Virus record (IMG/VR): IMGVR_UViG_3300045988_036701
Origin: a virus
Strand: one strand, 5' to 3'
DNA: 37,611 nucleotides
This document shows, piece by piece, positions 1,188-20,678 of the stretch. The notes below the pieces were generated by a model. It saw only the letters and a program-made list of their open reading frames with translations. It had not been told where the DNA came from and made no database searches. The number at the start of each line of letters is the position of its first letter. Positions within the stretch are counted from its first letter, which is position 1. Position numbers and translations under genes: made by a program.

Positions 1188-1574
1188 ATGGCAGATATTA
1201 GCAAAGAAATACAGGCTTTTCAGGACGCGGAATATGGCGAGGAAGTCCGCGGGTCTATGATATCCCTGGCTGAGAAAGTTAATGACGAAGTTGTAAAAGG
1301 TACTGTTGATGCTAAAGCAGCGGCTCAAAATGCAAATAAGGCGGCAGCTGATGCAGATGCCATACGGCAGGATCTTCAGTACAAAAAGGAAACCGATTAT
1401 TGGAGAGGAAGGCCAGGAGAAAGTGGAATCACTGCTTTAGCTTCTGGAATGTTTACACTGGCACTCGACCCGACGACGTATGACTTGTATGCATATTATC
1501 CGGATGCAGATAATCCCCCCGCATTTGAATATGAGAAAGCGACCGGAAACCTATACTATCTGATCGATGATTAA
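1188..1574 (+). CDS. Tail fibre-associated protein (N-terminal ..AEYGEEVRGSMI.. motif; C-terminal PPAFEYEKxTGNLYY tag)
   Basis: RBS AAAAGTGAGGTG. Position is in the fibre module. The C-terminal tag is shared with the 3167..3388 product. Confidence 0.7.
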   Translation: MADISKEIQAFQDAEYGEEVRGSMISLAEKVNDEVVKGTVDAKAAAQNANKAAADADAIRQDLQYKKETDYWRGRPGESGITALASGMFTLALDPTTYDLYAYYPDADNPPAFEYEKATGNLYYLIDD

Positions 1575-2072: not shown

Positions 2073-3152
2073 ATGGGAAAATATTTTTCTTCTGAAAATG
2101 CTATAAGGTATTGGAATAATACAAAGAACTGGGTCATGGATCTTTTTGTGGCTAAGGTTGACGGGAAAGGACTGTCTACAGAGGATTATACTACTGCTGA
2201 GAAAAACAAGCTGGCTGATTTGCATAATACTACTGTAGATAGCGCGTTATCCAGCACATCAACAAATCCGGTACAGAATAAGGCAATCAATACAGCTTTA
2301 GCCGGTAAGGTACCGACAACTCGTAAGGTTAATAACAAGGCACTTTCCGCAGACATTAACCTTACGGCGGCTGATGTGGCAGCGATCCCGGCAGCACAGA
2401 AAGGCGCGGCCAGCGGAGTGGCGGAGCTTGACGCATCCGGGAAGGTTCCCGCAGCGCAGCTTCCCAGTTATGTAGACGATGTTTTAGAATATCCTGCAAA
2501 AAGTAACTTCCCAGCAACGGGAGAAACCGGAAAAATATATGTGTCTACGAACGATAATAAAACCTATCGTTGGAGCGGAAGCGCTTATGTCGAAATAAGT
2601 GCCAGTATTGCATTGGGAGAGACCGCCAGCACGGCTTATCCTGGCAATAAAGGAAAGATAGCTTACGATCACAGCCAGGCGGCACATGCTCCGGCAAATG
2701 CCGAACAGAATGTTCAGTCTGATTGGAGTGTGACAGATACATCATCTGATGCCTATATCAAAGGGAAACCGACCTCCATGCCTGCCAATGGTGGTAATGC
2801 GGCTACGGTTGGAGGACATACCGTAGGGATTGACGTTCCGGCAAATGCAATATTTACAGATACGAAACCCGTTGCCATGAAGGGCGCGACTGCTTCGGCA
2901 GCTGGTGCAGCTGGCTACGTTCCCACTCCGCCAGCTGGATCACAGACAAAGTTTTTGAGGGCTGACGGAACTTATCAAACACCTGCGAACACAACGTATT
3001 CTGCGTTTAAAGGAGCAACCGCCAGCGCTGCGGGTAGCTCCGGTTTGGTTCCGGCCCCTGCTGCTGGAAAGCAGGATAGTATATTATGTGCAGACGGAAC
3101 GTGGGCGGAGCCTTTAACTGACGCTGAAATTGATGCTATATGTGTTGTGTAA
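2073..3152 (+). CDS. Tail fibre protein
   Basis: Fibre-typical motifs are present: STNPVQNKAINTAL, GVAELDASGKVPAAQLPSYVDDV, GETGKIYV and LGETASTAYPGNKG. There are two tandem repeats of the form FKGATASAAG..GxVPxPxAG....ADGTW. RBS is GGAGG. Confidence 0.85.
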   Translation: MGKYFSSENAIRYWNNTKNWVMDLFVAKVDGKGLSTEDYTTAEKNKLADLHNTTVDSALSSTSTNPVQNKAINTALAGKVPTTRKVNNKALSADINLTAADVAAIPAAQKGAASGVAELDASGKVPAAQLPSYVDDVLEYPAKSNFPATGETGKIYVSTNDNKTYRWSGSAYVEISASIALGETASTAYPGNKGKIAYDHSQAAHAPANAEQNVQSDWSVTDTSSDAYIKGKPTSMPANGGNAATVGGHTVGIDVPANAIFTDTKPVAMKGATASAAGAAGYVPTPPAGSQTKFLRADGTYQTPANTTYSAFKGATASAAGSSGLVPAPAAGKQDSILCADGTWAEPLTDAEIDAICVV

Positions 3153-3166: not shown

Positions 3167-3388
3167 ATGGGAAAATTTATTAGCAAAGCTAATTTAGAAC
3201 GCATATGGAAAAAAACAAAGGCTTACACAGACAGAAAGTTCGATGATGTTAATCCTATAGGACTGTTTAATTTGCAGTATGATGCTGCAACTGGAAATCT
3301 GTACGCGGTTTATCCTGACGGATCACCGCCGCCTGCATTTGAATATGAAAAGGATACCGGGAACTTATACTATATAACGAGTGATTAA
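3167..3388 (+). CDS. Small fibre-module protein, mosaic of the 2073-type N-terminus and the 1188-type C-terminal tag
   Basis: MGKFISKANLERIWKKTK resembles MGKYFSSENAIRYWNNTK. PPPAFEYEKDTGNLYYITSD resembles NPPAFEYEKATGNLYYLIDD. RBS is GAGGTGAGG. Confidence 0.65.
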   Translation: MGKFISKANLERIWKKTKAYTDRKFDDVNPIGLFNLQYDAATGNLYAVYPDGSPPPAFEYEKDTGNLYYITSD

Positions 3389-3403: not shown

Positions 3404-3886
3404 ATGGCAAGAATTTTAATTGGAAATATAAAACCAACTTTAGTAAACAATGCCCTTACTACACAGGCAGGATTGTACGCCTTAGACGCGGCCATGGGAT
3501 ATACGCTTGACGATAAAATAGGCAAGGTAAGTAGTGATTTAGGTGCGTTAGAAACTAACCTTGCAATATCAAATTACACATATTATCCAGTTACTTCCAG
3601 CACTACTTCCAATGCAGCAACTATTAAAGGTACTGGTAAAGTTATCAGTATTGATGGAGCCTTAACTGCTAAAGCTGGATTATCCATCGAAAAGTGGGGG
3701 AAAACCCTCGTGGGGTGGGTCCCAGAGGGGACAGTCCCAACAAATGATGTGTACTGCTATATGCAAGATAACATGTACATCTTAATTGATACTCAGCGTC
3801 AGGTATGGCTATGCAATAGGACTGCGGCCACTAAAGATGTATCGAATGTCAGCTACCTATATTCGTGCACTTATTTAATACAATAA
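3404..3886 (+). CDS. Receptor-binding tail protein: constant N-terminus (aa 1-46) fused to the currently expressed C-terminal cassette a
   Basis: Strong RBS TAAGGAGG. The N-terminus NNALTTQAGLYALDAAMGYTLDDKIGK is typical of fibre/RBP shoulders. Recombination-site copy A lies at codons 43-46. Confidence 0.75.
   Translation: MARILIGNIKPTLVNNALTTQAGLYALDAAMGYTLDDKIGKVSSDLGALETNLAISNYTYYPVTSSTTSNAATIKGTGKVISIDGALTAKAGLSIEKWGKTLVGWVPEGTVPTNDVYCYMQDNMYILIDTQRQVWLCNRTAATKDVSNVSYLYSCTYLIQ
3529..3543 (+). repeat. Crossover-site copy A (AAGTAGTGATTTAGg)
   Basis: Read as (V)-S-S-D-L-(G) inside CDS 3404..3886. Confidence 0.7.
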
Positions 3887-3890
3887 TCAA

Positions 3891-4167
3891 TTAGACAAAC
3901 TTGAAAATTGCACCTAACTGGATTGAGCCGCTGAACGTACGATCAAAATATACCCGTAACACACCGTTTACAAAGGCTGTGCCGAGTACCTGCACTTGGT
4001 TTACTTGATAGTTGGTATTAAAAACTGATAGTACTCCACCAGACACTTGATCAGATTTGATTGACGACCAGTCCACATAGTTTGCATTATTTACCTGTGC
4101 TATGTAAGCTGCAAATTGTATCTTACTAATTTTAGACTGAGCATCTGATAAATCAGTTCGCACCTCT
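3891..4167 (-). other. Silent alternative C-terminal cassette b (92 codons, no independent ATG or RBS)
   Basis: The minus-strand frame is open from site B to the stop at 3891-3893. The first start-like codon is GTG 4163 with no Shine-Dalgarno sequence. It is convergent with cassette a, with stops 4 nt apart. Confidence 0.6.
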
Positions 4168-4182
4168 GCTAAATCACTACTT
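4168..4182 (-). repeat. Crossover-site copy B (AAGTAGTGATTTAGC on the minus strand)
   Basis: The plus strand reads GCTAAATCACTACTT. On the minus strand it is read E-S-S-D-L-A, in frame with cassette b. Confidence 0.7.
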
Positions 4183-4259
4183 TCACAATTAAGAAACTTG
4201 TTAATCAGAGCTGAAAGGCTCTTATTTTTATACCCGAAAAGGGAGAAAGGAGTCCGTAC

Positions 4260-4640
4260 ATGAAGGACACTATGATCTTAAAAAATGGAACTATTATTGA
4301 ACTGGAGGCAGGCGCAAGCCTGGGAGCCTTACAGGTGGTGGCGACTGATCGGGCGGCCATGGTGGCAACATGGGAGGTATTGACACCAGATAATCTTGCA
4401 GCAGTGCAGATCAAAAACGGAGATGGAATTGTAATCGGAAATTATACTGACCTCGTGTTAGCTTCTGAAACGTCCACGGTATCCGCTGATGGCGCTGTCC
4501 TTACAACGTATAGCCTGCGCGAGAAAACGGACATAGAGAAGCGCCTGGACGCTGTAGAGGAAGGTCAGGCGGTGCAGGATGGGGCAATCGGTGATCTCGG
4601 TGAAGCGGTTGGTACACTGGCGGAAGGAGGTATAGCATAA
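4260..4640 (+). CDS. XkdW-like phage protein (pre-lysis module)
   Basis: RBS GGGAGAAAGGAG. Size and position match the PBSX-type order XkdW-XkdX-XhlA-holin-lysin. Confidence 0.6.
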   Translation: MKDTMILKNGTIIELEAGASLGALQVVATDRAAMVATWEVLTPDNLAAVQIKNGDGIVIGNYTDLVLASETSTVSADGAVLTTYSLREKTDIEKRLDAVEEGQAVQDGAIGDLGEAVGTLAEGGIA

Positions 4641-4750
4641 TGGGGGCATTTTACGGAACACGGATCAGGCGCGGTATTATTACGATTAATGAGGTGCCGA
4701 AGTTTTGGAAAACAAAGACAGAAAAATGGCTGGAAGAGAATCCGGAATAA
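4640..4750 (+). CDS. XkdX-like small protein (36 aa), not in the supplied ORF track
   Basis: TAATG overlap with the previous gene. The product is MGAFYGTRIRRGIITINEVPKFWKTKTEKWLEENPE, which is typical of the short protein preceding holins in Firmicutes phages. Confidence 0.5.
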   Translation: MGAFYGTRIRRGIITINEVPKFWKTKTEKWLEENPE

Positions 4751-4769
4751 CTGACAGGAGGGCTTACAT

Positions 4770-5009
4770 ATGCCTACAGAGATAATGGTGGCTCTGATCG
4801 GGCTGGGAGGCAGTGCAATCGGTACATTCGCCGGCGTGTTTGCGTCGGCGAAACTGACCGCCTACCGGCTAGAGCAGCTGGAGAAGAAAGTGGATAAGCA
4901 TAACACAGTTATTGAGCGGACCTTTAAATTAGAGGAGGCTCAGGCGGTTATGCAGGAGCAGATAAAGGTTGTTAATCACAGGATCAGTGATCTGGAAAGA
5001 GAGGAATAA
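4770..5009 (+). CDS. Membrane-anchored coiled-coil lysis-cassette protein (XhlA-like role)
   Basis: One N-terminal transmembrane segment (VALIGLGGSAIGTFAGVFASA) followed by a coiled coil. RBS is GGAGGG. It lies immediately upstream of the holin. Confidence 0.7.
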   Translation: MPTEIMVALIGLGGSAIGTFAGVFASAKLTAYRLEQLEKKVDKHNTVIERTFKLEEAQAVMQEQIKVVNHRISDLEREE

Positions 5010-5011
5010 TT

Positions 5012-5278
5012 ATGGATTTTGGAATTGCGAGTGTTGCAGGTATCACAGCGCTGTGCTATTTAGCCGCTATGGCGGTTAAGGCAACGACAGTAGACAACAA
5101 ATGGCTGCCGGTAATCTGCGGAGTTATCGGGGCATTACTGGGCGTTGCGGGTATGTATACAATGCCGGATTTCCCGGCAGTGGATATAATCAACGCAGCG
5201 GCGGTTGGAACTGTATCGGGGCTTGCGGCTACCGGTATCAACCAGATTTATAAACAACTTAAGGGTGGCGGCCAGTAA
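5012..5278 (+). CDS. Holin (phi LC3 / Hol44-like)
   Basis: Multiple transmembrane segments, the motif GLAATGINQIYKQLKGG near the C-terminus, and a position before the endolysin. Confidence 0.8.
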   Translation: MDFGIASVAGITALCYLAAMAVKATTVDNKWLPVICGVIGALLGVAGMYTMPDFPAVDIINAAAVGTVSGLAATGINQIYKQLKGGGQ

Positions 5279-5345
5279 CGCTGGAGGTGATCCGCTAATC
5301 TCCCAGCTGGCAGGGTTAGAGCCGGAGCTGTTGCGATCTCGCAAC

Positions 5346-5368
5346 AGTTGTGACGTCACAACTTTTTA
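5346..5368 (+). terminator. 18-nt perfect palindrome AGTTGTGACGTCACAACT followed by TTTTT (terminator-like or protein-binding site)
   Basis: Seen directly, between the holin stop and the endolysin start. Confidence 0.4.
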
Positions 5369-5369
5369 T

Positions 5370-5395
5370 GGGCCTGGGATTCCGGGCCCTTTTTT
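5370..5395 (+). terminator. Rho-independent terminator between holin and endolysin
   Basis: GGGCCTGG-GATT-CCGGGCCC forms an 8-bp stem with one G-U pair, followed by TTTTTT. Confidence 0.55.
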
Positions 5396-5416
5396 AATGA
5401 AAGGATAGGTAAAATT

Positions 5417-6160
5417 ATGAGAGATATTACATTATGCCATCCGCGGCTTCAGGCACTGGCGGGGCGACTCGTGGAGGAGTGCAATAAGCAGGGACTTAAA
5501 ATTAAGATCGGCGAGACGCTGCGGACCGTGGCAGAGCAGGACGCGCTTTACGCTCAGGGCCGAACAAAGCCTGGGCCTATTGTGACCAATGCGCCGGGAA
5601 GTAACTTCAGCTCCTACCACCAGTGGGGGACCGCGTTTGACTTTTTCCGCAACGACGGCTCCGGGGCCTACAACGAGAGTGGCCGCTTTTTTGAGCGCGT
5701 CGGAGCTATTGGAGTCGCCCTGGGGCTGGAATGGGGCGGCAACTGGAAAAGTCCGGTAGACAAACCACACTTCCAGCTTTCAGACTGGGGTAGCACTACG
5801 GCCGGTATTAAGCGGTTGTACCGCAATCCGGATGAGTTTATGCACACCTGGGAGCCGGTGGAAGACCGGATCGGCTGGATCAGTACGCCCAATGGCTGGT
5901 GGTATCGCAGGCCAGACGGGACGTATCCGACGAACAAGTGGGAAGTTATCAATCACCACTGGTACCTGTTTAACGGTGACGGATACATGTGTACGAGCTG
6001 GCACCGGTGGAACGGCAGTGTATGCGATCCGGAAGATGGTTCTGGGGACTGGTACTATTTCGATCCGACCACAGGCGGAGCGTATGAGGGCGCGTGCTGG
6101 CGGAGTCGAGATAATGGAGCCATGGAAATATGGTTTGTAGATCAGGCAGATAGTATATAG
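5417..6160 (+). CDS. Endolysin: peptidase M15 (VanY/L-Ala-D-Glu peptidase-like) domain with C-terminal cell-wall-binding repeats
   Basis: Catalytic-domain motifs TLRTVAEQDALYAQGRT, SYHQWGTAFDF and LEWGGNW..DKPHFQ. The C-terminus carries the repeats WWYRRPDGTY, HHWYLFNGDGYM and DWYYFDPTTGGAY. Confidence 0.9.
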   Translation: MRDITLCHPRLQALAGRLVEECNKQGLKIKIGETLRTVAEQDALYAQGRTKPGPIVTNAPGSNFSSYHQWGTAFDFFRNDGSGAYNESGRFFERVGAIGVALGLEWGGNWKSPVDKPHFQLSDWGSTTAGIKRLYRNPDEFMHTWEPVEDRIGWISTPNGWWYRRPDGTYPTNKWEVINHHWYLFNGDGYMCTSWHRWNGSVCDPEDGSGDWYYFDPTTGGAYEGACWRSRDNGAMEIWFVDQADSI

Positions 6161-6183
6161 TTTTCGTACTTAAGAGCGAAAAA

Positions 6184-6208
6184 GGGGGATGATAATCCAT
6201 CCCCCTTT
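6184..6208. terminator. Bidirectional-looking terminator after the endolysin
   Basis: AAAAA-GGGGGATG-ATAATC-CATCCCCC-TTT. It abuts site copy C. Confidence 0.65.
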
Positions 6209-6209
6209 C

Positions 6210-6224
6210 AAGTAGTGATTTAGC
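6210..6224 (+). repeat. Crossover-site copy C (AAGTAGTGATTTAGC)
   Basis: Read S-S-S-D-L-A, in frame with cassette c. The frame opens only at 6196, directly after a stop. Confidence 0.7.
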
Positions 6225-6759
6225 GGCGGAATATGCTCTTGCCGGTACTACTTTTGTTACTGATTTTAATAATGCCTCCATGCCGGGGCGCTATCGAGTC
6301 TATAACGCCTCAGGGACCGCTGCACATGGTCCATATGCTGGATCAGTTGGTGGTTATGTAGATATCCTTACAGATGGAGATACTGCTGTAACAGGAACTA
6401 AAGTATATCAAGAACTACACGATCACAACGGAGACACATATACGCGGATTAATATAGCAGGCACATCATATGGTGCGTGGGAGCACTATACACAAGACTC
6501 CGATTTGGGAGGCAATCTGCAGCTCCGTTCAAAATTGTACACCGGTTCCGCTGCATCAGGAATTGTCGTTACCAGCCGAAACAATCCCATATCACTGGAA
6601 AATGTCAGTGGACAAATTCTTGCTCATGTAGATAGCAACCAGATCGGGTATGTATCGACATGTCCAACCAACCCGGTCACTTTTACGGTCGCAAATGGCC
6701 GTGTAAAAATGTATGTCGATAATACATTCATGGGGTTTATTACCACCACTACCACTTAA
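6225..6759 (+). other. Silent alternative C-terminal cassette c (178 codons; pyocin/tail-fibre knob-like domain)
   Basis: TDFNNASMPGRYRVYNASG..HGPYAGSVGGYVDIL..YQELHDHNGDTYTRINIAGTSYGAWEHY matches the knob-domain pattern. The internal ATG 6280 is preceded by CCTCC rather than an RBS. Confidence 0.6.
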
Positions 6760-6764
6760 TATGA

Positions 6765-7032
6765 TCATATTGCGGTCCACTGGCTCCATGCGTCAGTACC
6801 ACGGTCATAGTACGTTTTATACATTTTGCCATTTGCGTCGATGGATATCCAAAATTGATTATTTTCTGACACGCGGCCGCCTATTTGGATACCTGCGGAA
6901 ACACTTGTTAAATTCTGTTTATATGGTGTTCCCAGAGTGTTGGCTCCCCAAAGTGCAAAATGTATACCATTTGCCGCCTGCCATGATTTGGAGTCTGTAA
7001 GCACAGTGAGATTTTCCAGTCCGGAAAGGTTC
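6765..7032 (-). other. Silent alternative C-terminal cassette d (89 codons; knob-like tip)
   Basis: The minus-strand frame is open from site D (the stop TAG lies just upstream of it). QFWISIDANGKMYKTYYDRGTDAWSQWTAI is knob-like. The only start-like codon is GTG 7004, with no RBS. It is convergent with cassette c, with stops 5 nt apart. Confidence 0.6.
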
Positions 7033-7047
7033 GCTAAATCACTATTA
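7033..7047 (-). repeat. Crossover-site copy D (TAATAGTGATTTAGC on the minus strand, 13/15 match)
   Basis: The plus strand reads GCTAAATCACTATTA. On the minus strand it is read L-N-S-D-L-A, in frame with cassette d. Confidence 0.6.
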
Positions 7048-7347
7048 AGCTATCTCAAACCTTTGTTAATTGTTTGTCATACGCCGTTTTTCGCCGTTAT
7101 TCTGAGCTGAAAAAAAATATTGGTAGTATCAAACTAATATCATTATTTTTTAGCGGTACGCGAGAACCCTTGATTTTACAGGGAAATCCAAAAAATGCTT
7201 GCGAAATTCGACATTCTGTGAGAAAAGAAATTCACCCTTGAAATACGCTGCGATTTTAGAAGAATAACGTTTTTACAAGGGTTTAGAGGATTTACTTAAA
7301 GTGGTAAAATGATGAAAAAAAGTATAAATAGTATCATAATAGTATCA
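7048..7347. other. Non-coding AT-rich region, candidate attP with arm-type repeats
   Basis: TAGTATCA occurs at 7124-7131, 7329-7336 and 7340-7347. ACCCTTG occurs twice directly, and there is one inverted near-copy (ACAAGGGT). The position between the lysis genes and the integrase is the classic attP location. Confidence 0.4.
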
Positions 7348-8556
7348 TCACTTTATTTTATTAATTTCTTTTAGGTACCACTCCAGGGACATATGGGTAT
7401 AAACAGAATCAGTAACGTCTTTGATCTTGTGGCCGAGGAACATTCTGCGGGCATATTCATCTACTTTATAACGCTTTGCAAGTGTTGAAAAAGTGTGCCT
7501 GGTGTCGTGCGGCCTGTGATCCGGATCGAGTCCGAGTGCATCTACAACCTGGCCGAAGCGATAATGATAGGCTTTGTAATCGACAGCTTTGCCGCCAATG
7601 ACAAATAAGGTGGTACTTCTGGCAGCCTTCGCTTTCTCATAACTTTCTTTTACTATATCATAGATTTTTGGGTGTATGGGAACAATTCTGTTTTTTGACG
7701 ATTCTGTTTTATTACCTCCGGAGAAACTACGATTTTTTAAATCTATATTCTCCAGCAGTAAATGGCATAACTCATCTGGCCGCCAACCACTATAAATTCC
7801 GATGTACATTATGTTGGCTCCGGGAATAGTGAGATTCTTTGATAGCAATTCTATCTCCGCATCTGTAAAGATGATATGTGGTTTCTTAACGTCGGTATCT
7901 AAAGTCAGTTCAAAGGAACGGGCATAGTTTTTCTGTATAATATCTAATTCTCCAAATGCATAGTCATACATTAAATTCAACAGCGATTTTATAAGTCCCT
8001 TGATGTTGTCAGTAGCAGTTACTGTTTTGGTCTTTCTTACTGCACAGGCATTATTTATACAATGCTTTAATTGTGGCACCTTTGTATTTATTACCTTTTT
8101 ATCATATAGCGCCGAACAATATGACCATGCTAATTCAATATTTTGTTTACGGCTATCTGAAAGATCTGGAAAACGTTCTTTCGTAAAGGCTTCGTAGAGC
8201 TGCTGTAAAGTCATATTGTACGATGCGATATCATAAGGATCATCATGGTACTTTATGATTGAACTCATTGCTTTTCCTCTATCTTCATAATAACCGATCC
8301 AATCATAATCATAATGGGATTTCTTTGTTTTTTCGTTTAACACAAGCCGCGGATTCACTCCGGCCAGATATGGCTTACGGCGATTTCCACTTATTTTCCT
8401 GATTGTGCCATATCCATTGGGGAGGCGTTTTACGCCACGAGGTCTATTAAGCTTTTTGGAAAAAGGAGCGGAAGACAGAGGACATCCGCAATGTGGACAA
8501 GAAAACGCCTTATCACTTACTCTTCCTGCGCACTCTGGACATTGCATAAGTGCCAT
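7348..8556 (-). CDS. int: Tyrosine integrase with N-terminal zinc ribbon and arm-binding-type domain
   Basis: Zinc ribbon CPECAGRVSDKAFSCPHCGC. LPNGYGTIRKISGNRRKPY resembles an arm-DNA-binding domain. The catalytic region contains GWRPDEL..., HDTRHTF, LGH and VYTH. Confidence 0.9.
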   Translation of the reverse strand: MALMQCPECAGRVSDKAFSCPHCGCPLSSAPFSKKLNRPRGVKRLPNGYGTIRKISGNRRKPYLAGVNPRLVLNEKTKKSHYDYDWIGYYEDRGKAMSSIIKYHDDPYDIASYNMTLQQLYEAFTKERFPDLSDSRKQNIELAWSYCSALYDKKVINTKVPQLKHCINNACAVRKTKTVTATDNIKGLIKSLLNLMYDYAFGELDIIQKNYARSFELTLDTDVKKPHIIFTDAEIELLSKNLTIPGANIMYIGIYSGWRPDELCHLLLENIDLKNRSFSGGNKTESSKNRIVPIHPKIYDIVKESYEKAKAARSTTLFVIGGKAVDYKAYHYRFGQVVDALGLDPDHRPHDTRHTFSTLAKRYKVDEYARRMFLGHKIKDVTDSVYTHMSLEWYLKEINKIK

Positions 8557-10877: not shown

Positions 10878-11135
10878 ATGATAGGAAGAATACGGACTGC
10901 AACGGCCGCTAAGATCTGCGGAGTGTCAACTGGGTATCTGCTTGAGAAGATGCGAACAGGAGAGTACGATCTCGGGGACTACAACAAAAATGGTAAGAAA
11001 GCTTATGCCGTGATTCGTCCCGGGAAGCTGGCAGCGCATCTTCAGCGCAGTATCAGCGAGATTGACACAGCAGTGAGAGAGATTGAAGGAGAGGAGGGAC
11101 GTAAAACGACATGCAGAAGTACATTGACAATATAG
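10878..11135 (+). CDS. Small helix-turn-helix DNA-binding protein (possible excisionase)
   Basis: RBS GGAGGTG. TATAAKICGVSTGYLLEKMRTGE looks like a MerR/Xis-type helix-turn-helix. Confidence 0.45.
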   Translation: MIGRIRTATAAKICGVSTGYLLEKMRTGEYDLGDYNKNGKKAYAVIRPGKLAAHLQRSISEIDTAVREIEGEEGRKTTCRSTLTI

Positions 11136-11269
11136 ACGACTTCGAGGACGACAGCCGGCCGCCGATTGTAGACTGGGTGGAATGGCTGCTGGTTGGGATC
11201 TTTGATCTGGCCGGAGCAGCAGCCTGTGCCTACATAGGGTATCTACTATTACGGGCATGTGTGTTGTAA
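11111..11269 (+). CDS. Possible small membrane protein (52 aa), not in the ORF track
   Basis: MQKYIDNIDDFEDDSRPPIVDWVEWLLVGIFDLAGAAACAYIGYLLLRACVL has one C-terminal transmembrane segment. The RBS spacing is weak. Confidence 0.3.
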   Translation: MQKYIDNIDDFEDDSRPPIVDWVEWLLVGIFDLAGAAACAYIGYLLLRACVL

Positions 11270-11365
11270 AAAAGAAACCCAGACGGGTGGAGCCGTCCGG
11301 GAATCAAGGTAACTGATAATATATTCACGCCCTCATTATAACAGAGGGAGACAGGAGATTGCAAG

Positions 11366-11692
11366 ATGAAAATTATTATGGATTTAAATGGTATTAAAAT
11401 TGAAAAAGAAATTCCAGACGATTTACGGAAGCCGGCGCAGATCATCTTTAATAAAGTGGAAGGGATTGATACTGATCCAACGGTAACGTTAATGGGACCG
11501 AATAGCGGCATATATGCAGGATCATGTGCGATAGTAACCAGTGTTTTAAAAGAGCTGCATCCAGATAATAAAAAGATGCAGAAAGCAGTTTTAGACCTTT
11601 TGTACGCAAGCGTATCAGGAGATCTCGGTCTGAATACAGCTGATAAGCCGAGGAGTTACGGTCCGATCAGCCCGGACGATGTAGATTTCTAA
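11366..11692 (+). CDS. Hypothetical early protein
   Basis: ORF with RBS AGGAG. No recognisable motif. Confidence 0.55.
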   Translation: MKIIMDLNGIKIEKEIPDDLRKPAQIIFNKVEGIDTDPTVTLMGPNSGIYAGSCAIVTSVLKELHPDNKKMQKAVLDLLYASVSGDLGLNTADKPRSYGPISPDDVDF

Positions 11693-11711
11693 TTCAGAGG
11701 GAGGGCAAACC

Positions 11712-12365
11712 ATGCGTGAAGCTGTGAAACTCACCCCACTTACTCCAGAGGAACAGACCTTTGCAGAGGAGAATTACGAAGCTCTTGTCAAAGCAATGAG
11801 AACGCATCACCTGAGTAATGATATGTACGATGTGGCTGCTATGGGATTCTTACATGCTGTCAAGAAATGGTTTGCCCGCCCGGATCTTCGGCAGTGGTCC
11901 TTTCAGACTATTGTGAATAAAACTGTTTGGAGCAAATTAAGCGGCGAGCGGGAAAGAGAAAAACGCCGTATTCAGACAGTGAGTCTTGATGAAGTTATAC
12001 CTGGAACTGACGGCTTAACCTATGGGACCATAATAACAGATGCAAATACCAGTTATTTAAGAAGAGAGGAAAGCAAGACAATGAAAATAAATTTTGATGT
12101 AAAAATACCGGAAGCTGCAAAAATGGGACGAGTCCCCAGCGTAGAGATAGAAACTGTTTTAGATTTCTTAGACTCGACCCATCGTACATTATGTTTCGAG
12201 TATGAAACAGCCAAAGATGCAACAAGGAAAGCGGGAGTTTTGAGATCTTGGAAAAAGAATCATAACAGGGCTGATATTAATATCTACAAAATGGCAGATA
12301 GAGTATTTATTGAAAAAATAGTAGCAAAGGGAAGGAGAAAAGCAAATGTCAATGAAGATAAATAA
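11712..12365 (+). CDS. Hypothetical protein with sigma-70 region-2-like N-terminus (tentative)
   Basis: RBS GGGAGGG. YDVAAMGFLHAVKKW resembles sigma region 2. Confidence 0.5.
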   Translation: MREAVKLTPLTPEEQTFAEENYEALVKAMRTHHLSNDMYDVAAMGFLHAVKKWFARPDLRQWSFQTIVNKTVWSKLSGEREREKRRIQTVSLDEVIPGTDGLTYGTIITDANTSYLRREESKTMKINFDVKIPEAAKMGRVPSVEIETVLDFLDSTHRTLCFEYETAKDATRKAGVLRSWKKNHNRADINIYKMADRVFIEKIVAKGRRKANVNEDK

Positions 12366-13623
12366 GCTTGAGATCGAGAACGTCAAACGCGTGAAGGCGG
12401 TTAAAATCGAACCAACTTCTGATGGCCTTACTATCATTGGAGGAAAGAATAATCAGGGTAAGACCTCCGTGTTGGACGCGATTGCGTGGACACTGGGCGG
12501 CGAGCGGTACCGGCCAGTGGCAGCCACCCGGGAAGGCTCCGTAATCCCACCAATCTTAAAAATTGTCATGAATAACGGTCTGGTCGTTGAACGTAAAGGA
12601 AAAAACAGCAGCCTTAAGGTGACGGATCCCAGCGGCCAGAAGGGTGGTCAGCAGCTCCTGGACAGCTTTGTGGAACAGCTTGCCCTCGATCTCCCGAAGT
12701 TTATGGAAGCGTCGGACAAGGAGAAAGCAAACATTCTTCTGAAGATCATCGGCGTCGGCCCTCAACTGGCAGAGATGGAGCAGAAGGAAAAAGAACTGTA
12801 TAACGAGCGGCTGTATGTCGGACGGACCGCAGATCAGAAAGAGAAGTACGCAAAGGAGCAGCCTTATTATCCGGATGCACCACAGGAGCTTGTTTCCCCA
12901 TCCGAGCTGATCCGGAAACAGCAGGATATACTCGTCCAGAATGGTGAGAACCAGAGAAAGCGTGAGAATCTGCACCAGCTGGAACAGGAATACCAGCGCG
13001 TTACCGAACAGATTCAGGAACTGCTGAAGGAGCAGACCAGGCTTACGGAAAGTTTAAAAATTGCCCGTACATCGGCCGCCGATCTGGTGGATCAGTCCAC
13101 AGAGGAACTGGAGCGGAATATTACTGATATCGAAGAGATTAACAGGAAGGTGAGGGCTAACTTAGATAAGGACAAGGCCGAAGAGGACGCCAAAGACTAT
13201 AAGGAACGGTACACGCAGCTTACTACGGAGATTGAGGGCATCCGGACTCAGAAAACAGACCTGCTGAAGAATGCAGACCTTCCGCTTCCCGGTCTTACTG
13301 TAGAAGATGGGGATTTGCTGTACAACGGGCATAAGTGGGATGATATGTCCGGATCGGATCAGCTGAGAGTGGCGACGGCCATCGTCCGGAAACTGAATCC
13401 GAACTGCGGGTTTGTACTCCTGGACAAGTTGGAGCAGATGGACCTCGACACGCTGACAGAGTTTGGTAAGTGGCTGGAGCAGGAAGGGCTTCAGGCGATT
13501 GCAACCCGTGTAAGTACCGGGGGAGAGTGCAGCATTATTATTGATGATGGTTATGTGGTAGGGCAGGAAGTGACAGAGCCTGAACCGCCTAAGAAAACAG
13601 AATGGAAGGCAGGTGCATTTTAA
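12346..13623 (+). CDS. SMC/SbcC-like AAA ATPase (recombination module)
   Basis: N-terminal Walker A GGKNNQGKTSVLDAI, a long central coiled coil, and a C-terminal VLLDKLEQMD (Walker B/D-loop-like). Confidence 0.8.
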   Translation: MSMKINKLEIENVKRVKAVKIEPTSDGLTIIGGKNNQGKTSVLDAIAWTLGGERYRPVAATREGSVIPPILKIVMNNGLVVERKGKNSSLKVTDPSGQKGGQQLLDSFVEQLALDLPKFMEASDKEKANILLKIIGVGPQLAEMEQKEKELYNERLYVGRTADQKEKYAKEQPYYPDAPQELVSPSELIRKQQDILVQNGENQRKRENLHQLEQEYQRVTEQIQELLKEQTRLTESLKIARTSAADLVDQSTEELERNITDIEEINRKVRANLDKDKAEEDAKDYKERYTQLTTEIEGIRTQKTDLLKNADLPLPGLTVEDGDLLYNGHKWDDMSGSDQLRVATAIVRKLNPNCGFVLLDKLEQMDLDTLTEFGKWLEQEGLQAIATRVSTGGECSIIIDDGYVVGQEVTEPEPPKKTEWKAGAF

Positions 13624-14744
13624 TGCAGATTATCAGAGGGAAAATCCCCTGTGCAAAGAAAACGGTGATTTACGGGCCTGAAGGGATTGGAAAATCTACA
13701 CTGGCTGCCCGTTTTCCGGATCCTGTATTTATAGATACGGAGGGGAGTACAAAAGATATGGACGTTGCGAGGACTCCGGCCCCCAGCAGCTGGCCGATGC
13801 TGATGGAACAGGTGAAATACTTCATCACACATCCGGATGAGCTTAAAACACTTATTATTGATACGGCCGACTGGGCGGAACAGCTGTGCGTAACTGATAT
13901 CTGCTCACGCTTCCAGAAGGCCGGAATTGAAGACTTCGGGTATGGAAAAGGCTATACATATTTGCAAGAAGAGTTTGGGCGGCTTTTAAATCTGTTGACC
14001 GAACTTGTAGAGCAGAAGGGTGTCAATGTAGTACTGACGGCCCATGCGAAGATGCGCAAATTTGAGCAGCCGGACGAGTTGGGCGCTTACGACCGATGGG
14101 AGATGAAACTGACAAAACAGGTGGCCCCAATGGTTAAGGAATGGGCTGATATGGTCCTTTTCGCAAACTACAAAACGATAGTATATAACGTGGACGGTCA
14201 GGGCGCGCAGAAGGGTAAAAACAAGGTTCAGGGCGGCAAGCGGGTAATCTATACCACCCATCATCCGTGTTGGGATGCAAAGAATCGTTACGGCCTTCCG
14301 GATGAGATCCCCATGGATTATAACGAGATCCGCCACGTCATTGAGGATCAGGCCGTGAAGGCAGACCAGACACCGCCAAAGGACAAGAAGGCCCCTGTTA
14401 AGCAGAGCGCACCGGAGTCAGCAGAGCCCGACAAAAGCCACCAGGAGCCTGCAAAAGAAGAGAAAGCAACTCAGCCTATGGATCAGAAGCAGGAACCTGT
14501 AAACCCGCCAGATCCAAGGGTTGACGAACGGATTCCGAAAGCCCTGCGCGATCTGATGATTGCGAACGGTGTGGATGAATGGGATATTCAGAATGTAGTT
14601 GCAGCAAGGGGATATTTCCCGGCTGATATGGTAGTGGCAGATTACCCGGCAGATTTTGTATCGGGTGTGCTGGTGGGAGCATGGACGCAGGTCTATGCAA
14701 TGATTAAGGAAATGAAAGAGAAAGACAGTCTTGTATTTAATTAA
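13623..14744 (+). CDS. Sak4-like RecA-family ATPase (AAA_24) with low-complexity linker and C-terminal domain
   Basis: TAATG overlap start. IYGPEGIGKSTLAARFPDPVFIDTEGS and LIIDT are present. An alternative upstream start exists at 13602. Confidence 0.8.
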   Translation: MQIIRGKIPCAKKTVIYGPEGIGKSTLAARFPDPVFIDTEGSTKDMDVARTPAPSSWPMLMEQVKYFITHPDELKTLIIDTADWAEQLCVTDICSRFQKAGIEDFGYGKGYTYLQEEFGRLLNLLTELVEQKGVNVVLTAHAKMRKFEQPDELGAYDRWEMKLTKQVAPMVKEWADMVLFANYKTIVYNVDGQGAQKGKNKVQGGKRVIYTTHHPCWDAKNRYGLPDEIPMDYNEIRHVIEDQAVKADQTPPKDKKAPVKQSAPESAEPDKSHQEPAKEEKATQPMDQKQEPVNPPDPRVDERIPKALRDLMIANGVDEWDIQNVVAARGYFPADMVVADYPADFVSGVLVGAWTQVYAMIKEMKEKDSLVFN

Positions 14745-14759
14745 GGAGGATAAGCGTAT

Positions 14760-15206
14760 ATGGCAGAATATGAAGGAAGAGAATTAGGCTGGGACGAAGA
14801 AGTGGAAAAGGGGGAAGGCGGGGATTATATCCTCCTTCCTCCCGGAGATTATGATTTTACGGTGGAAACATTCGAGCGGGCAAGATTTGAGGGTAGTGCG
14901 AAAGCTCCGGCCTGCAATAAGGCGGTAATAAAATTAAGAGTTGAGGTCCCGGAAGGAAGCACGCTCATTACTGAGAGTCTGCTTCTCTATGACAAAATGC
15001 AGTGGAAGATTGCACAGTTTTTCGTATGCATTGGGGAAAAAGAGGTTGACGGCAAGGTGAAAATGAACTGGCCGGCGGTTCCCGGTGCAAAGGGAAGGGC
15101 TACCATAGAAGTGACCACAGACAGAAACGATGCATCAAAGAAATATAACCATGTGAAAAAGTATTTGCCTTATGAACCCAAAAAATTTGAGCCTGGGAGG
15201 TTTTAG
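14760..15206 (+). CDS. DUF669-family protein (ssDNA-binding-like partner of Sak4)
   Basis: The motif ILLPPGDYDFTVETFE, and synteny between the Sak4-like ATPase and the helicase. Confidence 0.7.
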   Translation: MAEYEGRELGWDEEVEKGEGGDYILLPPGDYDFTVETFERARFEGSAKAPACNKAVIKLRVEVPEGSTLITESLLLYDKMQWKIAQFFVCIGEKEVDGKVKMNWPAVPGAKGRATIEVTTDRNDASKKYNHVKKYLPYEPKKFEPGRF

Positions 15207-15208
15207 CC

Positions 15209-16789
15209 ATGGATTTAAGGCCATACCAGGAACAGGCAAAAACAGCCATCTTCGAGGAATGGGATAAGGGCGTCCGGCGGACGCTCCTCGTCCTCCCGAC
15301 AGGCTGCGGAAAGACGATTGTATTTGCAAAGACCGCAGAAGAGTGCGTCCGGCGCGGCGACAGAGTGTTAATCATGGCGCACCGCGGCGAGTTATTGGAT
15401 CAGGCTGCGGACAAAATCGGGAAGGCTACAGGGCTGGCCTGCGCGACTGAAAAAGCAGAGCAGTCCTGCCTTGGAAGCTGGTTCCGGATCACGGTGGGAT
15501 CCGTCCAGACTCTTATGCGTGAGAAGCGGCTGAATCAGTTTCCAAAGAATTATTTTAACACCATTATCATTGATGAGGCCCATCACAGCCTGTCAGACAG
15601 TTATCAGCGGGTACTGGAACACTTTTCGGACGCTCATGTGTTGGGAGTAACAGCAACGCCGGATCGTGGCGATATGCGGAATCTGGGTGATTATTTCGAG
15701 AGTCTGGCTTATCAGTACACGCTTCCGAAAGCGATTAAAGAAGGATATCTGTCTCCCATTAAGGCGCTGACGCTGCCGTTAAAACTGGATTTGTCTGGTG
15801 TGGGAGTACAGGCCGGGGACTTTAAAAATGGAGATATCGCGACGGCCTTAGACCCGTACCTGTACCAGATTGCGGAGGAGATGGCAAACTACTGCGCGGA
15901 CCGAAAGACGGTAGTGTTCCTTCCTCTGGTAAAAACCAGCCAGAAGTTCCGGGATATCCTGAATGAGAAAGGCTTTAAAGCCGCCGAAGTCAATGGTGAC
16001 AGTAAGGACCGGGCGGAAGTACTGGAAGCATTTGACCGGGGAGATTATAACGTCCTGTGCAACTCCATGCTTCTGACGGAGGGGTGGGACTGCCCCTCCG
16101 TGGATTGTATCGTGGTACTCCGGCCGACAAAGATCCGCAGCCTGTACAGTCAGATGGTGGGCCGCGGTACCAGACTTCACCCGGGAAAAGATCACTTGCT
16201 GTTGTTAGATTTCTTATGGCATACAGAGCGTCACGAACTCTGCCACCCGGCGAGTCTGATCTGTCAGGATGATAAGGTCGCGCAGAAAATGACGGAGAAT
16301 TTAGAAGCCGCTGCCGGGTGTCCGGTCGGCCTCGAAGAGGCAGAACAGAAGGCTTCTAAAGATGTCATATCTGAGCGGGAAGAAGCCCTTGCAAAGCAGC
16401 TTAAGGAAATGAAGAACCGACAAAAGAAACTGGTAGATCCGCTACAGTTTGAAATGAGTATTCAGGCGGAGGATCTGGCCGGGTATGTACCGTCATTCGG
16501 ATGGGAAATGGGGCCGGCTACTGAAAAACAGAAGAAGGAACTGGAGAGACGCGGGATTCTTCCCGATGCCATCGACAACGCAGGAAAGGCTAATCTGATG
16601 CTGACGCATCTTGACAAGCGCCGCCAGGAAGGACTCACGACTCCAAAACAGATCCGCTTTTTAGAAGGACGAGGATTCCAGCATGTCGGCACGTGGAATT
16701 TCGATGCAGCTAAAAATATGATCGACCGGTTTGCGGCTAATGGCTGGAAGACACCAGCGGGAGTGAGTCCCAGAGATTATACTCCATAG
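15209..16789 (+). CDS. DEAD/DEAH-box (SF2) helicase
   Basis: LPTGCGKT (motif I), IIIDEAHH (motif II), TATP (motif III) and QMVGRGTR (motif VI). Confidence 0.9.
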   Translation: MDLRPYQEQAKTAIFEEWDKGVRRTLLVLPTGCGKTIVFAKTAEECVRRGDRVLIMAHRGELLDQAADKIGKATGLACATEKAEQSCLGSWFRITVGSVQTLMREKRLNQFPKNYFNTIIIDEAHHSLSDSYQRVLEHFSDAHVLGVTATPDRGDMRNLGDYFESLAYQYTLPKAIKEGYLSPIKALTLPLKLDLSGVGVQAGDFKNGDIATALDPYLYQIAEEMANYCADRKTVVFLPLVKTSQKFRDILNEKGFKAAEVNGDSKDRAEVLEAFDRGDYNVLCNSMLLTEGWDCPSVDCIVVLRPTKIRSLYSQMVGRGTRLHPGKDHLLLLDFLWHTERHELCHPASLICQDDKVAQKMTENLEAAAGCPVGLEEAEQKASKDVISEREEALAKQLKEMKNRQKKLVDPLQFEMSIQAEDLAGYVPSFGWEMGPATEKQKKELERRGILPDAIDNAGKANLMLTHLDKRRQEGLTTPKQIRFLEGRGFQHVGTWNFDAAKNMIDRFAANGWKTPAGVSPRDYTP

Positions 16790-16801
16790 GGAGGTTAAGA
16801 C

Positions 16802-19048
16802 GTGATAGAGAATGGTTACGACCTTTTAGAAGTATTAGAGCATATCGATCCTTCTGATCTGAATTATCAGGAATGGGTCAATGTTGGCATGGCCTTGCAG
16901 CATGAAGGCTATGACGTTGATGTGTGGGATCGCTGGAGCATGAACGACAGAAGATACCACAGCGGCGAATGTGCGAGAAAATGGCGTGGCTTCCATGGAT
17001 CGGGTGAGCCGGTGACTGGCGGAACCATTGTCCAGCTTGCGCGTGAGCAGGGCTGGACGCCGCCATACGATCCGGGAACACCTCTGGATTGGGATGATAC
17101 CATATCCGCGGAAGGCGTCGTCGTAAATAAGAACTGGGTGGAAGGCAGGGAGATCTCAGAACCGCAGAATTGGGATCCCGTAGCCGAACTGATCCGGTAT
17201 CTGGAAACACTGTTCGAAGCCGGGGAGAATGTCGGGTACGTGGTTAAAAGCTATCAGCGAGATGATGGAGGCTGGAATCCAGCGAATAAAGGAGCATATG
17301 ACCGTACTGCCGGACAGCTGATCGAGCTGCTTACCAACTGCAAGGGAGACATCGGCGGTGTATTGGGAGATTATAACACAGATGCCGGCGCGTGGATCCG
17401 TTTTAATCCGCTGGACGGTGAAGGTGTAAGGGATACGAATGTGGCGGACTACCGGTACTCTCTCGTGGAATCTGACGGCATGGATCTGGAAAAGCAGCAC
17501 GCGATTATCAGGGAACTTGAATTGCCGGTGGCCTGTCTGGTGTATTCCGGAGGCAAGAGCCTGCACGCTATTGTACGGATTGATGCTGCGGACTTTACGG
17601 AATACCGGAAACGCGTAGACTATCTGTACGAAATCTGTAAAAAGAATGGTCTGGAGCTTGACCAGCAGAACCGGAACCCTTCCAGGCTGTCCAGAATGCC
17701 GGGTGTGATCCGAGGAGACCGGAAGCAGTATATCATTGATACGAACATTGGAAAAGCAAACTGGACGGAATGGAAGGAGTGGATCGAGAGTATTAATGAT
17801 GATCTTCCGGATCCGGAGAGCCTGGACGATGTGTGGAATAATCTTCCGGACCTGGCCCCTACTTTGATTGACGGAATATTGAGACAGGGGCACAAGATGC
17901 TGATTGCAGGTCCGTCAAAGGCCGGGAAATCGTTCCTCCAGATAGAAATGTGTATTGCTATCGCAGAGGGCAGAAAGTGGCTTAACTGGACCTGTACGCA
18001 AGGAAGGATCCTGTATGTGAACTTAGAACTGGACCGGGCCAGCTGCCTGCATCGTTTCCGTGATGTGTATCAGGCATTGGGCTGGGAGCCAAGGAATCTT
18101 AAGAATATAGATATCTGGAACCTCCGTGGTAAATCGCGGCCTATGGATAAGCTTGCGCCGATGCTGATCCGGCGGGCGGCCAAAAAGAATTATATCGCTA
18201 TTATTATTGATCCGATCTATAAGGTCATTACCGGCGACGAGAACAGCGCGGATCAGATGGCGAATTTCTGCAACCAGTTTGATAAGGTGTGTACCGAGCT
18301 GGGCGTGGCGGTGATCTACTGCCATCATCACAGCAAAGGAAGCCAGGGCGGTAAAAAATCCATGGACCGAGCCAGCGGCTCCGGCGTGTTCGCCCGTGAT
18401 CCGGATGCGCTTCTCGATCTGATCGAACTGGAAACGACCGAGGAGTTGATGAAACAGCAGGAAAATAAAGCTGTGTGTGAAGCTTGCAGGCAATATTTAG
18501 ATGCACATTATAAGTGGGAGGACGAACTCTCACAAGACGATCTGCTGAGTTCTTACCAGATGCTTAACTACTGTGAGAACAAGCTGGAGAAAGGGCAATT
18601 TGAGGCATTACAGCGCACCACAGAGGCCGTGAAGAAGAGAGCACAGTCAATGACTGCATGGAGGATCGAGGGTACGCTGAGAGAGTTCCAGAAGTTTTCA
18701 CCGGTCAATATGTGGTTTGATTATCCGATACATACAGTCGATGCTTCCGGAGTGCTGGGAGATATTCAGCCGGAGGCAGAATTGCCGCCATGGAAAAAAG
18801 CCTCTTCAGCAAAGAAGAAAAGTGATAGTAAAAGGAAGAAAAACAATGAATTAAAGTTCATTGAAGCAATTGAAAGCTGCAATATGGGAGAGCTGCCTAC
18901 AGCTAAAATGGTAGCGGAATACTTGAGTACAGCAGACAAAGAATTCCCGATTAGAACTGTGCGTGATTGGGCCAAACGGTATGGATATGACTTCCAGACC
19001 GGTAAGTGGAGTACTGAAAGTGTGACAGAAGCAAAAGAAGAGGAGTAG
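16802..19048 (+). CDS. DNA primase/helicase (PriCT-2-like N-terminus with RepA/AAA_25-type ATPase)
   Basis: GTG start 7 nt after GGAGG. YQEWVNVGMALQHEGYDVDVWDRWS...ECARKWRGF resembles PriCT-2. Walker A is IAGPSKAGKSF. Confidence 0.8.
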   Translation: MIENGYDLLEVLEHIDPSDLNYQEWVNVGMALQHEGYDVDVWDRWSMNDRRYHSGECARKWRGFHGSGEPVTGGTIVQLAREQGWTPPYDPGTPLDWDDTISAEGVVVNKNWVEGREISEPQNWDPVAELIRYLETLFEAGENVGYVVKSYQRDDGGWNPANKGAYDRTAGQLIELLTNCKGDIGGVLGDYNTDAGAWIRFNPLDGEGVRDTNVADYRYSLVESDGMDLEKQHAIIRELELPVACLVYSGGKSLHAIVRIDAADFTEYRKRVDYLYEICKKNGLELDQQNRNPSRLSRMPGVIRGDRKQYIIDTNIGKANWTEWKEWIESINDDLPDPESLDDVWNNLPDLAPTLIDGILRQGHKMLIAGPSKAGKSFLQIEMCIAIAEGRKWLNWTCTQGRILYVNLELDRASCLHRFRDVYQALGWEPRNLKNIDIWNLRGKSRPMDKLAPMLIRRAAKKNYIAIIIDPIYKVITGDENSADQMANFCNQFDKVCTELGVAVIYCHHHSKGSQGGKKSMDRASGSGVFARDPDALLDLIELETTEELMKQQENKAVCEACRQYLDAHYKWEDELSQDDLLSSYQMLNYCENKLEKGQFEALQRTTEAVKKRAQSMTAWRIEGTLREFQKFSPVNMWFDYPIHTVDASGVLGDIQPEAELPPWKKASSAKKKSDSKRKKNNELKFIEAIESCNMGELPTAKMVAEYLSTADKEFPIRTVRDWAKRYGYDFQTGKWSTESVTEAKEEE

Positions 19049-19238
19049 CGGCAACGGCGGCGGATATCATAAAACAAGGAAAATGATAACTGCCCGAAGA
19101 GAGCGGCGGATGTCATTAAATAAGGTAATTGCCGTAAATGCTGTAACGGCGGCGGATATTAGAAAAATATGGTAATCGCCGTGCCGCGGCAACGGCGGCG
19201 AACACCACTATATATAATATATATTTTATTGCCGCCGC
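19048..19238. repeat. Iteron cluster plus AT-rich stretch: candidate replication origin
   Basis: GCGGCAACGGCGGCG occurs at 19048-19062 and 19186-19200. AACGGCGGCGGATAT occurs at 19053-19067 and 19145-19159. GCGGCGGAT occurs at 19103-19111. An AT-only run spans 19208-19230 and is followed by an inverted GCCGCCGC. Confidence 0.5.
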
Positions 19239-20000: not shown

Positions 20001-20011
20001 GGGAATAAAAA

Positions 20012-20659: not shown

Positions 20660-20678
20660 GATTTAACGGAGGAAGCGG

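Follow-up and report, generated by a model that had tools for sequence, protein, structure and literature searches.

The virus record IMGVR_UViG_3300045988_036701 of IMG/VR (37,611 nucleotides, one strand; hereafter the window, meaning the whole stretch that was analysed) is the circular assembly of a 37.6-kb temperate phage, with a terminal overlap of 55 nt, and its matching ENA contig is ERZ28623050 scaffold_526. The same phage was found integrated in Hungatella contigs, and its host is Hungatella (Lachnospiraceae). At 3404-7046 the window holds the gene of a small distal tail-fibre protein, four tip cassettes (a, b, c and d), the lysis genes and four copies of a short DNA core (Table 1). 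We consider it very probable that this locus is one four-site, three-segment DNA shufflon that varies the receptor-binding tip of the fibre protein.

The 11-nt core TAGTGATTTAG is present four times in 37.6 kb; with up to one mismatch allowed, all four copies found were exact and all lay in the locus, against 0.45 copies expected by chance, and none of 100 shuffles reached four. Three of the sites (S1, S2 and S3) share the longer sequence (A)AGTAGTGATTTAG, the fourth (S4) reads AATAGTGATTTAG, and the cores alternate in orientation along the locus as + - + -. Each core is in frame with the coding segment that follows it and reads S-(S)-D-L, which corresponds to residues 43-46 in the expressed gene, where the codons of the site are AGT AGT GAT TTA G. 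Across 24 sites from six phage types the consensus extends to 13 nt, A-R-T-A-G-T-R-A-T-T-T-A-G, and always encodes x-S-D/N-L; around it, the cassette side is not conserved and the opposite side is conserved within a genome only.

Cassettes c and d had been singled out in a first-pass annotation as a convergent pair of silent fibre tips, and the geometry described there was borne out. The c frame opens at 6196, directly after the stop codons TGA TAA (6190-6195) and a hairpin that abuts it (6181-6208; dG -20.1 kcal/mol, z -5.1, reached in 0 of 200 shuffles), and stays open to the stop at 6757-6759; on the minus strand, the d frame opens right past a TAG (7050-7052) and runs from 7049 to its stop at 6765-6767. 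The two stops are 5 nt apart, which copies the a/b pair, whose stops (3884-3886 and 3891-3893) are 4 nt apart. The start of cassette c is 2.3 kb past the end of the 3404 gene, beyond the genes for the XkdW-like and XhlA proteins, the holin and the M15 endolysin, and the pair lies, as had been proposed, between the endolysin gene and the attP/integrase region, with attP placed near 7224-7226 by comparison of the window with an integrated copy (L003). The two promoterless tips are probably also untranslated in place, as the annotation had held: no Shine-Dalgarno (SD) sequence precedes either the internal ATG at 6280 (c) or the internal GTG at 7004 (d), and the neighbouring 3404 and 4260 genes carry AAGGAGG and AAGGAG, respectively.

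Fusion proteins and natural isomers

Public copies were retrieved through the phage proteins in a protein-indexed collection (ENA, Logan and NCBI), and the contigs were then mapped back onto the window. All four tips were found as exact fusions to the constant residues 1-46: the fusion to c (224 aa) occurs in 231 contigs by exact-sequence look-up, that to a (the product of the 3404 gene of the window) in 10 contigs, that to d (135 aa, P0004) in four contigs from four samples, and that to b (138 aa, P0099) in one. Chimeric junctions, whose absence had been named beforehand as the evidence that would speak against a silent store, are therefore a matter of record for every cassette. Because the fusions to c and d exist as exact proteins with their junctions within the common core, c and d are tips that lack a promoter and are brought to the site of expression at 3404, and the idea of a silent cassette store stands. 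The description of the pair as orphan has to be given up: c and d make up one half of a system with four sites, and in most genomes the expressed tip is c. WP_321007004.1 (Hungatella sp.) is a named protein match of the c fusion, and H. hathewayi assemblies supplied related contigs.

For the mapping, the locus was divided into the blocks L0 (up to 3542), A (3529-4182), M (4168-6223), CD (6210-7044) and R0 (from 7033). Five arrangements and one deletion were found, with every junction inside the core and with block identities to the window of 99.9-100%, the exception being the upstream tail-gene block of L019 and L055 (about 99%). The order of the window, L0 A M CD R0, recurs in L003/L026 and L029 and is a minority state; the commonest isomer is L0 CD M A R0 (L022-L025, L027, L028 with 13 similar places, L030 and L031), in which c is expressed and a/b are parked between the endolysin gene and attR. 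The reverse complement (rc) of CD follows L0 in L0 rc(CD) M (L017 and L019) and in L0 rc(CD) rc(M) (L020), and L0 rc(A) is represented by L055, in which the window up to 3542 is joined to rc(4182..3873). Four fixed left flanks (the constant part, the start of M, the end of M and the attP side) each occur with two to four cassettes; the switch point is always inside the 11-nt core, and an A/G difference two bases upstream of the core stays with the flank. Contigs that are 100% identical upstream part from the window exactly past base 3542. These comparisons show rearrangement at the DNA level.

In the mechanism that we propose, the constant 46-residue N-terminus ending in S-S-D-L would be kept, its codons doubling as the crossover site, and the four tips, which have neither promoter nor SD sequence and each begin with the same core in the same frame, would be exchanged behind it. 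The sites in + - + - order delimit the segments A (a> <b), M (XkdW/XkdX/XhlA/holin/endolysin) and CD (c> <d), and conservative site-specific recombination at opposed cores would flip A, M, CD or the whole 3.5-kb block, so that any of the four tips could be joined to the constant part. Bringing in c or d by inversion would need the large S1 x S4 event, which would flip the lysis module too, and a second inversion, S2 x S3, could restore it. Directly oriented cores recombine too; this deletes M+CD and could provide cassette exchange with a route by excision and re-integration. Switching presumably takes place during lysogeny, and the tips presumably set the host range.

Two sets of contigs carry further peculiarities near the sites. 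Although L023 (ERZ28619870 scaffold_43) is a long contig of 184 kb, the dominant isomer in it runs straight into the attP-int-repressor region in the manner of the circular form, which may reflect a copy that is tandem or episomal, or else an error of scaffolding. L013, L014 and three more contigs (P0002), all from different samples, end 41 nt past the S1 core inside a c-like tip (EKQYALADTTYVTDF), which suggests either that a second cassette starts with the same 40-odd bases or that assemblies are broken by heterogeneity in the population.

The junction is also used well beyond the four cassettes of the window. The identical 46-aa constant part is joined to at least 15 further unrelated tips (P0054-P0070), and L013-L015 are 100% identical to the window over 3.5 kb and diverge exactly after the last base of S1. 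Conversely, tip c stands on at least five N-terminal scaffolds, collagen-like ones included (Pfam matches of the scaffolds are Collagen and Phage_fiber_rpt), and the join is always (S/N)(S/N)(D/N)L. In L002 a full-length fibre of 332 aa bears a c-like tip after NSNL, with a d-like silent cassette 2 kb off. The CD segment of L021 is 99.9% identical from core to core, and L021 is otherwise unrelated over the 11 kb available; the same d is joined there to the constant part of the other phage (P0005). Cassette c itself is bipartite, with c1 reaching to about 6510 and c2 forming the distal half, and c2 alone serves as a tip elsewhere. Inside c, at 6494-6514, the peptide Q-D-S-D-L-G-G is reminiscent of the junction motif, although its DNA (TCCGATTTGG) is not a copy of the core, and other phages have the half of c past this motif by itself as a tip behind SDL (P0029, P0043 and P0046).

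A derivative of this phage and a relative show other changes around S1. L015 (H. hathewayi GCA_039751395.1, JBDMEG010000047.1), compared with 10534-37611 of the window, lacks 11053-28324, 29022-29581 and 31664-34250, the first of which holds the replication genes, the XerD-like recombinase, the terminase and the portal; the overlap at the deletion junctions is 1-2 nt. Tail and fibre genes are retained, with a different tip behind S1. Decay of a prophage would be one explanation, an element of satellite or tailocin type another. In L016 (ERZ24911352 NODE_771, 3855-3998), a 94.5%-identical relative with a P0065-type tip, the core ends in A instead of G, and a GAG-to-TAG change two codons past the core truncates the fibre-tip gene to 47 aa.

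That a-d act as fibre tips is strongly indicated by their genetic context. None of the four has a Pfam, PHROG-function or NCBIfam match. The AlphaFold (AF2) model of c, built from a 41-sequence alignment, is all-beta with a pLDDT of 65; Foldseek against the PDB gave nothing significant (best E 0.33), as did a PDB profile search, and matches to predicted viral proteins (BFVD) were weak (E 1e-4 to 1e-2, TM 0.3-0.4), those with names being mostly tail fibre and many others unnamed or uncharacterised. The model of d (pLDDT 41) is unusable. The likeness of c and d to pyocin or knob domains, which the first-pass annotation had seen, is on these models not established.

In metagenomes of the human gut the phage is common, and 524 blocks of the collection index its endolysin. 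Other searches were less productive: a 22-mer across the S1 junction had no exact DNA match in IMG/VR, the GTDB representative genomes or the JGI metagenomes, which leaves the protein-indexed collection as the only one with the phage; blastn of the locus against GenBank phages gave distant endolysin matches only; tblastn of the c fusion against phages gave no match; and a search for loci related to the 3404 product returned none. The 46-aa constant part alone, as a protein query, brought up no more than three proteins, all truncated, and not the 160-aa protein, so that absence from this search is uninformative.

Table 1. Features of the locus and of the recombinase genes in the window (positions count from its first letter).
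Feature	Position	Strand	Remarks
Tail genes	up to 3388		include a 359-aa fibre-like protein at 2073..3152
Expressed fibre-tip gene, 160 aa	3404..3886	+	strong SD AAGGAGG
Constant N-terminal segment, aa 1-46	3404..3541	+	ends S-S-D-L; identical 46 aa on a, b, c, d and at least 15 other tips
Site S1 (position P1)	3529..3542	+	AAGTAGTGATTTAG; inside the expressed gene
Tip cassette a	3543..3886	+	expressed in the window isomer; fusion to the constant part is an exact protein
Tip cassette b	3891..4168	-	silent in the window; convergent 90-aa ORF (open reading frame) 3891..4163
Site S2 (position P2)	4169..4182	-	S2-left/S4-right deletion junction in L007 and L009
Lysis module M	4183..6209	+	between inverted sites; moves as one block among isomers
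PBSX-like lysis block	4260..6160		
XkdW-like gene	4260..4640		in the lysis block
XkdX-like gene	4640..4750		in the lysis block
XhlA-like gene	4770..5009		in the lysis block
Holin gene	5012..5278		in the lysis block
M15 endolysin gene	5417..6160		in the lysis block
Site S3 (position P3)	6210..6223	+	
Tip cassette c	6224..6759	+	silent in the window, expressed in most genomes; fusion to the constant part is an exact protein
Tip cassette d	6765..7033	-	silent in the window; fusion to the constant part is P0004 in L017-L020
Site S4 (position P4)	7034..7046	-	AATAGTGATTTAG on the minus strand
attP crossover region	7215..7230		identity with the integrated copy stops near 7224-7226
Tyrosine integrase, 402 aa, N-terminal zinc ribbon	7348..8556	-	adjoins attP; presumed prophage integrase
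XerC/D-like tyrosine recombinase, 340 aa	21841..22863	+	candidate invertase in trans

Upstream of the locus, a 61-nt repeat with 80% identity (1515-1574 and 3329-3388) encodes the common C-terminal motif PPAFEYEK.TGNLYY in proteins of 128 aa (1188..1574) and 73 aa (3167..3388), each ahead of a fibre-like gene; these two proteins may be paired fibre chaperone or adaptor modules.

The lysis module between the sites

The single deletion among the arrangements removes the lysis genes. In L007 and L009, integrated prophages from separate projects and different assemblers (MEGAHIT k141 in one case), S2 on its b side runs directly into S4 on its attP side (...CCTCTGCTAAATCACTA|TTAAGC...), with the usual host flank beyond. 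The deletion is precise, so that the lysis module and c/d are lost and the prophage is left without holin or endolysin. This S2 x S4 deletion between directly oriented cores is equivalent to a P1 x P3 deletion that starts from the dominant isomer.

Two further contigs bear on the orientation of the module. In L020 the endolysin gene is on the strand opposite to the tail genes, and in L021, which belongs to a different phage type, c is followed by a flank that matches, in reverse complement, what usually stands ahead of the distal cassette pair. Inversion of the lysis module is on this evidence likely but not proven. Just inside both of its sites the module is bounded by hairpins, at 4207-4222 (a terminator-like stem with a T-run, 25 nt inside S2) and at 6181-6208 (abutting S3). 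With a promoter of its own, if one is present, M could be an orientation-independent transcription unit; promoter and terminator scans showed no enrichment over shuffles.

The two conceivable routes of cassette exchange would affect the module differently. The M+CD-deleted chromosome is the intermediate that would be expected if A and CD swap by way of an excised M+CD circle that re-integrates at the last site; the inversion-only route, consisting of S1 x S4, S2 x S3 and then single flips, would necessarily pass through states with inverted M. A more far-reaching reading, which we put forward tentatively and hold to be possible without favouring it, is that the lysis cassette is a working segment of the shufflon, with the choice of tip coupled to the orientation or loss of the holin and endolysin genes, and that core-excised circles of M+CD or of CD re-integrate in the same or in unrelated co-resident prophages, which would amount to an integron-like, community-wide pool of tips. 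Support for a shared pool comes from the at least 15 tips on one scaffold, the one tip on at least five scaffolds and the 99.9% identical CD in an unrelated phage.

Candidate recombinase and competing explanations

The window encodes two tyrosine recombinases, of 402 and 340 aa. For the 402-aa integrase, family matches are restricted to the catalytic domain. The 340-aa protein is XerC/D/XerA-like over its full length, consists of core-binding and catalytic domains with no arm-binding domain, and conserves R194, H287, R290 and Y323; its gene lies just upstream of sigma-like and terminase genes. Its relatives recur with the core: homologues were found inside or beside clusters of AGT(A/G)ATTTAG in L002, L117, L121 and L053. 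In L002 the recombinase lies between two cassette pairs and is 31% identical to the 340-aa protein (E 2e-42), against only E 8e-4 for the 402-aa integrase; in L117 and L121, homologues of about 30% identity abut clusters of three cores, at a background of 0.07 sites per 10 kb; and in L053 a fibre switch of two sites with an identical core has a 79% homologue 3.9 kb away. Among the 80 loci listed in this comparison of the recombinase family, the L001-type phage contig was absent. Judging from these sequence associations, we lean towards the 340-aa XerD-like recombinase as the enzyme, acting in trans; the 402-aa attP integrase is probably not the enzyme of the shufflon.

The alternative that keeps most weight accepts the shufflon and assigns it to the neighbouring 402-aa integrase or to a host invertase, leaving the 340-aa protein for a task such as multimer resolution. 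The integrase gene is 300 nt from S4 and the 340-aa gene 15-19 kb off, most homologues of the 340-aa protein at 60-70% identity have no core motif in their 6-10 kb flanks, and trans-acting invertases are known (Mpi, as cited in PMC6109161). We nevertheless regard this assignment as rather unlikely: the crossover sequence of attP does not resemble the core, the integrase is far more distant than the 340-aa protein from the cassette-embedded recombinase of L002, and at three more loci the same core has relatives of the 340-aa family beside it.

A related case is the isolated Terrisporobacter phage TPELB_ph1 (L133, PP197244.1), in which a 33%-identical XerD-like 'integrase' (5914-6909) lies between a putative fibre gene and the holin gene, and a second, larger integrase follows the endolysin; around the homologous recombinase of this phage, no convincing inverted sites were found.

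A second alternative would dispense with programmed inversion. The isomers could be fixed strain differences that arose by rare illegitimate or homologous exchange at a conserved junction, with c/d as leftovers; each isomer does come from a different sample, and the SDL junction is also a module boundary at the protein level that is common to many fibres. We find this improbable. Over about 7 kb the isomers differ in arrangement at 100% identity, so that rearrangement is much faster than point mutation; junctions occur in reciprocal form and each of the four fusions is present; cores of 11-14 nt are too short for RecA-dependent exchange; the + - + - order is strict and a dedicated recombinase family co-occurs with the core; and many contigs break at or just past the sites.

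Two explanations are hardly credible. That c (6280..6759) and d (6765..7004) are separate genes of the accessory, moron type, expressed from signals of their own near the prophage end, would suit the prediction of the 159-aa c ORF by gene callers in 24 contigs and the position next to attR, which commonly holds morons, but neither internal start has an SD sequence, both frames are open upstream through the core up to a stop, and the two tips stand behind N-terminal parts of fibres in hundreds of contigs, over five scaffolds that include collagen-like ones. That the isomers are assembly artefacts at a short repeat is just as implausible: all assemblies are from short reads, and inserts are typically shorter than the CD and A segments (0.65-0.84 kb), but a repeat of 11-14 nt is below the k-mer of every assembler, and the same junctions recur across assemblers, projects, NCBI genome assemblies and RefSeq proteins.

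Two classes of switching system were considered and rejected. Pfam scans of 30 window ORFs yielded only two proteins of the Phage_integrase family and no serine recombinase or resolvase, and a serine-invertase system was discarded on that account. A diversity-generating retroelement was discarded as well, the change being replacement of whole cassettes at a fixed site instead of scattered substitutions; no reverse-transcriptase domain turned up in the Pfam scans.

Several points weigh against the shufflon as we read it. The isomers each come from separate samples and are known from short-read assemblies. The 340-aa gene is 15-19 kb from the sites, and its assignment as the enzyme is by association. 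The receptor-binding function is deduced from context, and structure adds little, with a pLDDT of 41 for the d model and weak fold matches for c. The lysis-inverted state is seen in one 2.3-kb contig (L020) and in a 50-nt flank in L021, and since both cross the 835-bp CD segment, short-read mis-phasing is possible there.

Relation to known systems and significance

Among known systems, the Rin shufflon of Bifidobacterium and Eggerthella prophages, with 11-bp rix sites, the XerD-like recombinase Rin and an adjacent block of Rv cassettes, is a close comparison (Mavrich et al. 2018, PMC6109161; PMC8778435); its isomers differ between prophage and virion genomes (PMC6109161; PMC8778435). Both systems combine a constant N-terminus of a receptor-binding protein with promoterless variable C-terminal cassettes, each headed by a short asymmetric site. 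The XerD-like tyrosine recombinase of Rin, which lacks an arm-binding domain and is distinct from the integrase, has a candidate counterpart here in the 340-aa protein, whose gene is not adjacent to the cassettes. The core TAGTGATTTAG differs from rix, TTCCCTAACCC (PMC6109161). The Rin cassettes form one contiguous block between Rc and the adjacent rin, whereas here two convergent pairs are split by a deletable and probably invertible lysis module, the candidate recombinase lies 15-19 kb away by the terminase gene and the host belongs to the Bacillota (Lachnospiraceae). Precise deletions between direct sites, and a junction and even whole cassette pairs that are common to distinct phage lineages, set the present locus further apart. 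By this analogy, the locus works like Rin, with a new split layout.

A second parallel is the BV01-like Phocaeicola phage, in which multi-cassette inversion at the 3' end of the tail-fibre gene uses 10-bp directional motifs and all configurations occur in populations (PMC13596623, 2026 preprint). It is likewise a gut temperate phage with multi-cassette inversion at the 3' end of a tail-fibre gene, but that system is compact (1.7 kb), is flanked by its own recombinase and contains no essential genes, and its hosts and proteins are unrelated to those of the present phage.

The joining of a constant part to alternative tips by inversion is also shared with Min (p15B), Gin (the G segment of Mu) and Cin (the C segment of P1). 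In these classical systems a constant Sc part is combined with inverted alternative Sv tips that set the host range, Min having six sites and multiple segments; serine invertases act on 26-bp sites with a Fis-dependent enhancer, and the segments carry tips and tail-fibre assembly genes. By contrast, no serine recombinase was found among the 30 ORFs scanned here, and the region between the sites contains lysis genes. In the R64/IncI shufflon (Rci/sfx, pilV), a tyrosine recombinase, whose gene adjoins the sites, selects the C-termini of a conjugative-pilus adhesin, and inversion only has been reported. The tyrosine recombinase, the many alternating sites with one conserved arm, the many isomers and the choice of an adhesin C-terminus are common to R64 and to the present locus, whereas the deletion between directly oriented cores (L007 and L009) and the target, a phage fibre tip and not a pilus adhesin, are different.

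Tail fibres are enriched among programmed inversions generally (PMC9881135), and tail-fibre shufflons can be regarded as a hedge of some temperate phages against variable host surfaces. The main interest of the Hungatella phage lies in the split architecture, the possible coupling of tips and lysis, and the exchange of tips from core to core; we found no paper in the literature that describes a shufflon enclosing lysis genes. Three features are undescribed for Rin, Min and BV01. First, the cassettes can lie scattered, with essential genes between the sites, and scans for compact clusters of inverted repeats beside a recombinase would miss or misread such loci. Second, the same sites yield deletions of the lysis genes as side products, which would be a simple route to lysis-defective, domesticated prophages. 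Third, the x-S-D/N-L junction is common to several lineages of the same host group, and tips are traded from core to core by phages that are otherwise unrelated. If the coupling of tip choice to the lysis module is true, it would mean phase-variable lysis competence, or prophages that are locked in their host. The phage may serve as a tractable natural system for host-range switching in Lachnospiraceae, and its junction as a ready, modular one for the engineering of receptor-binding tips.

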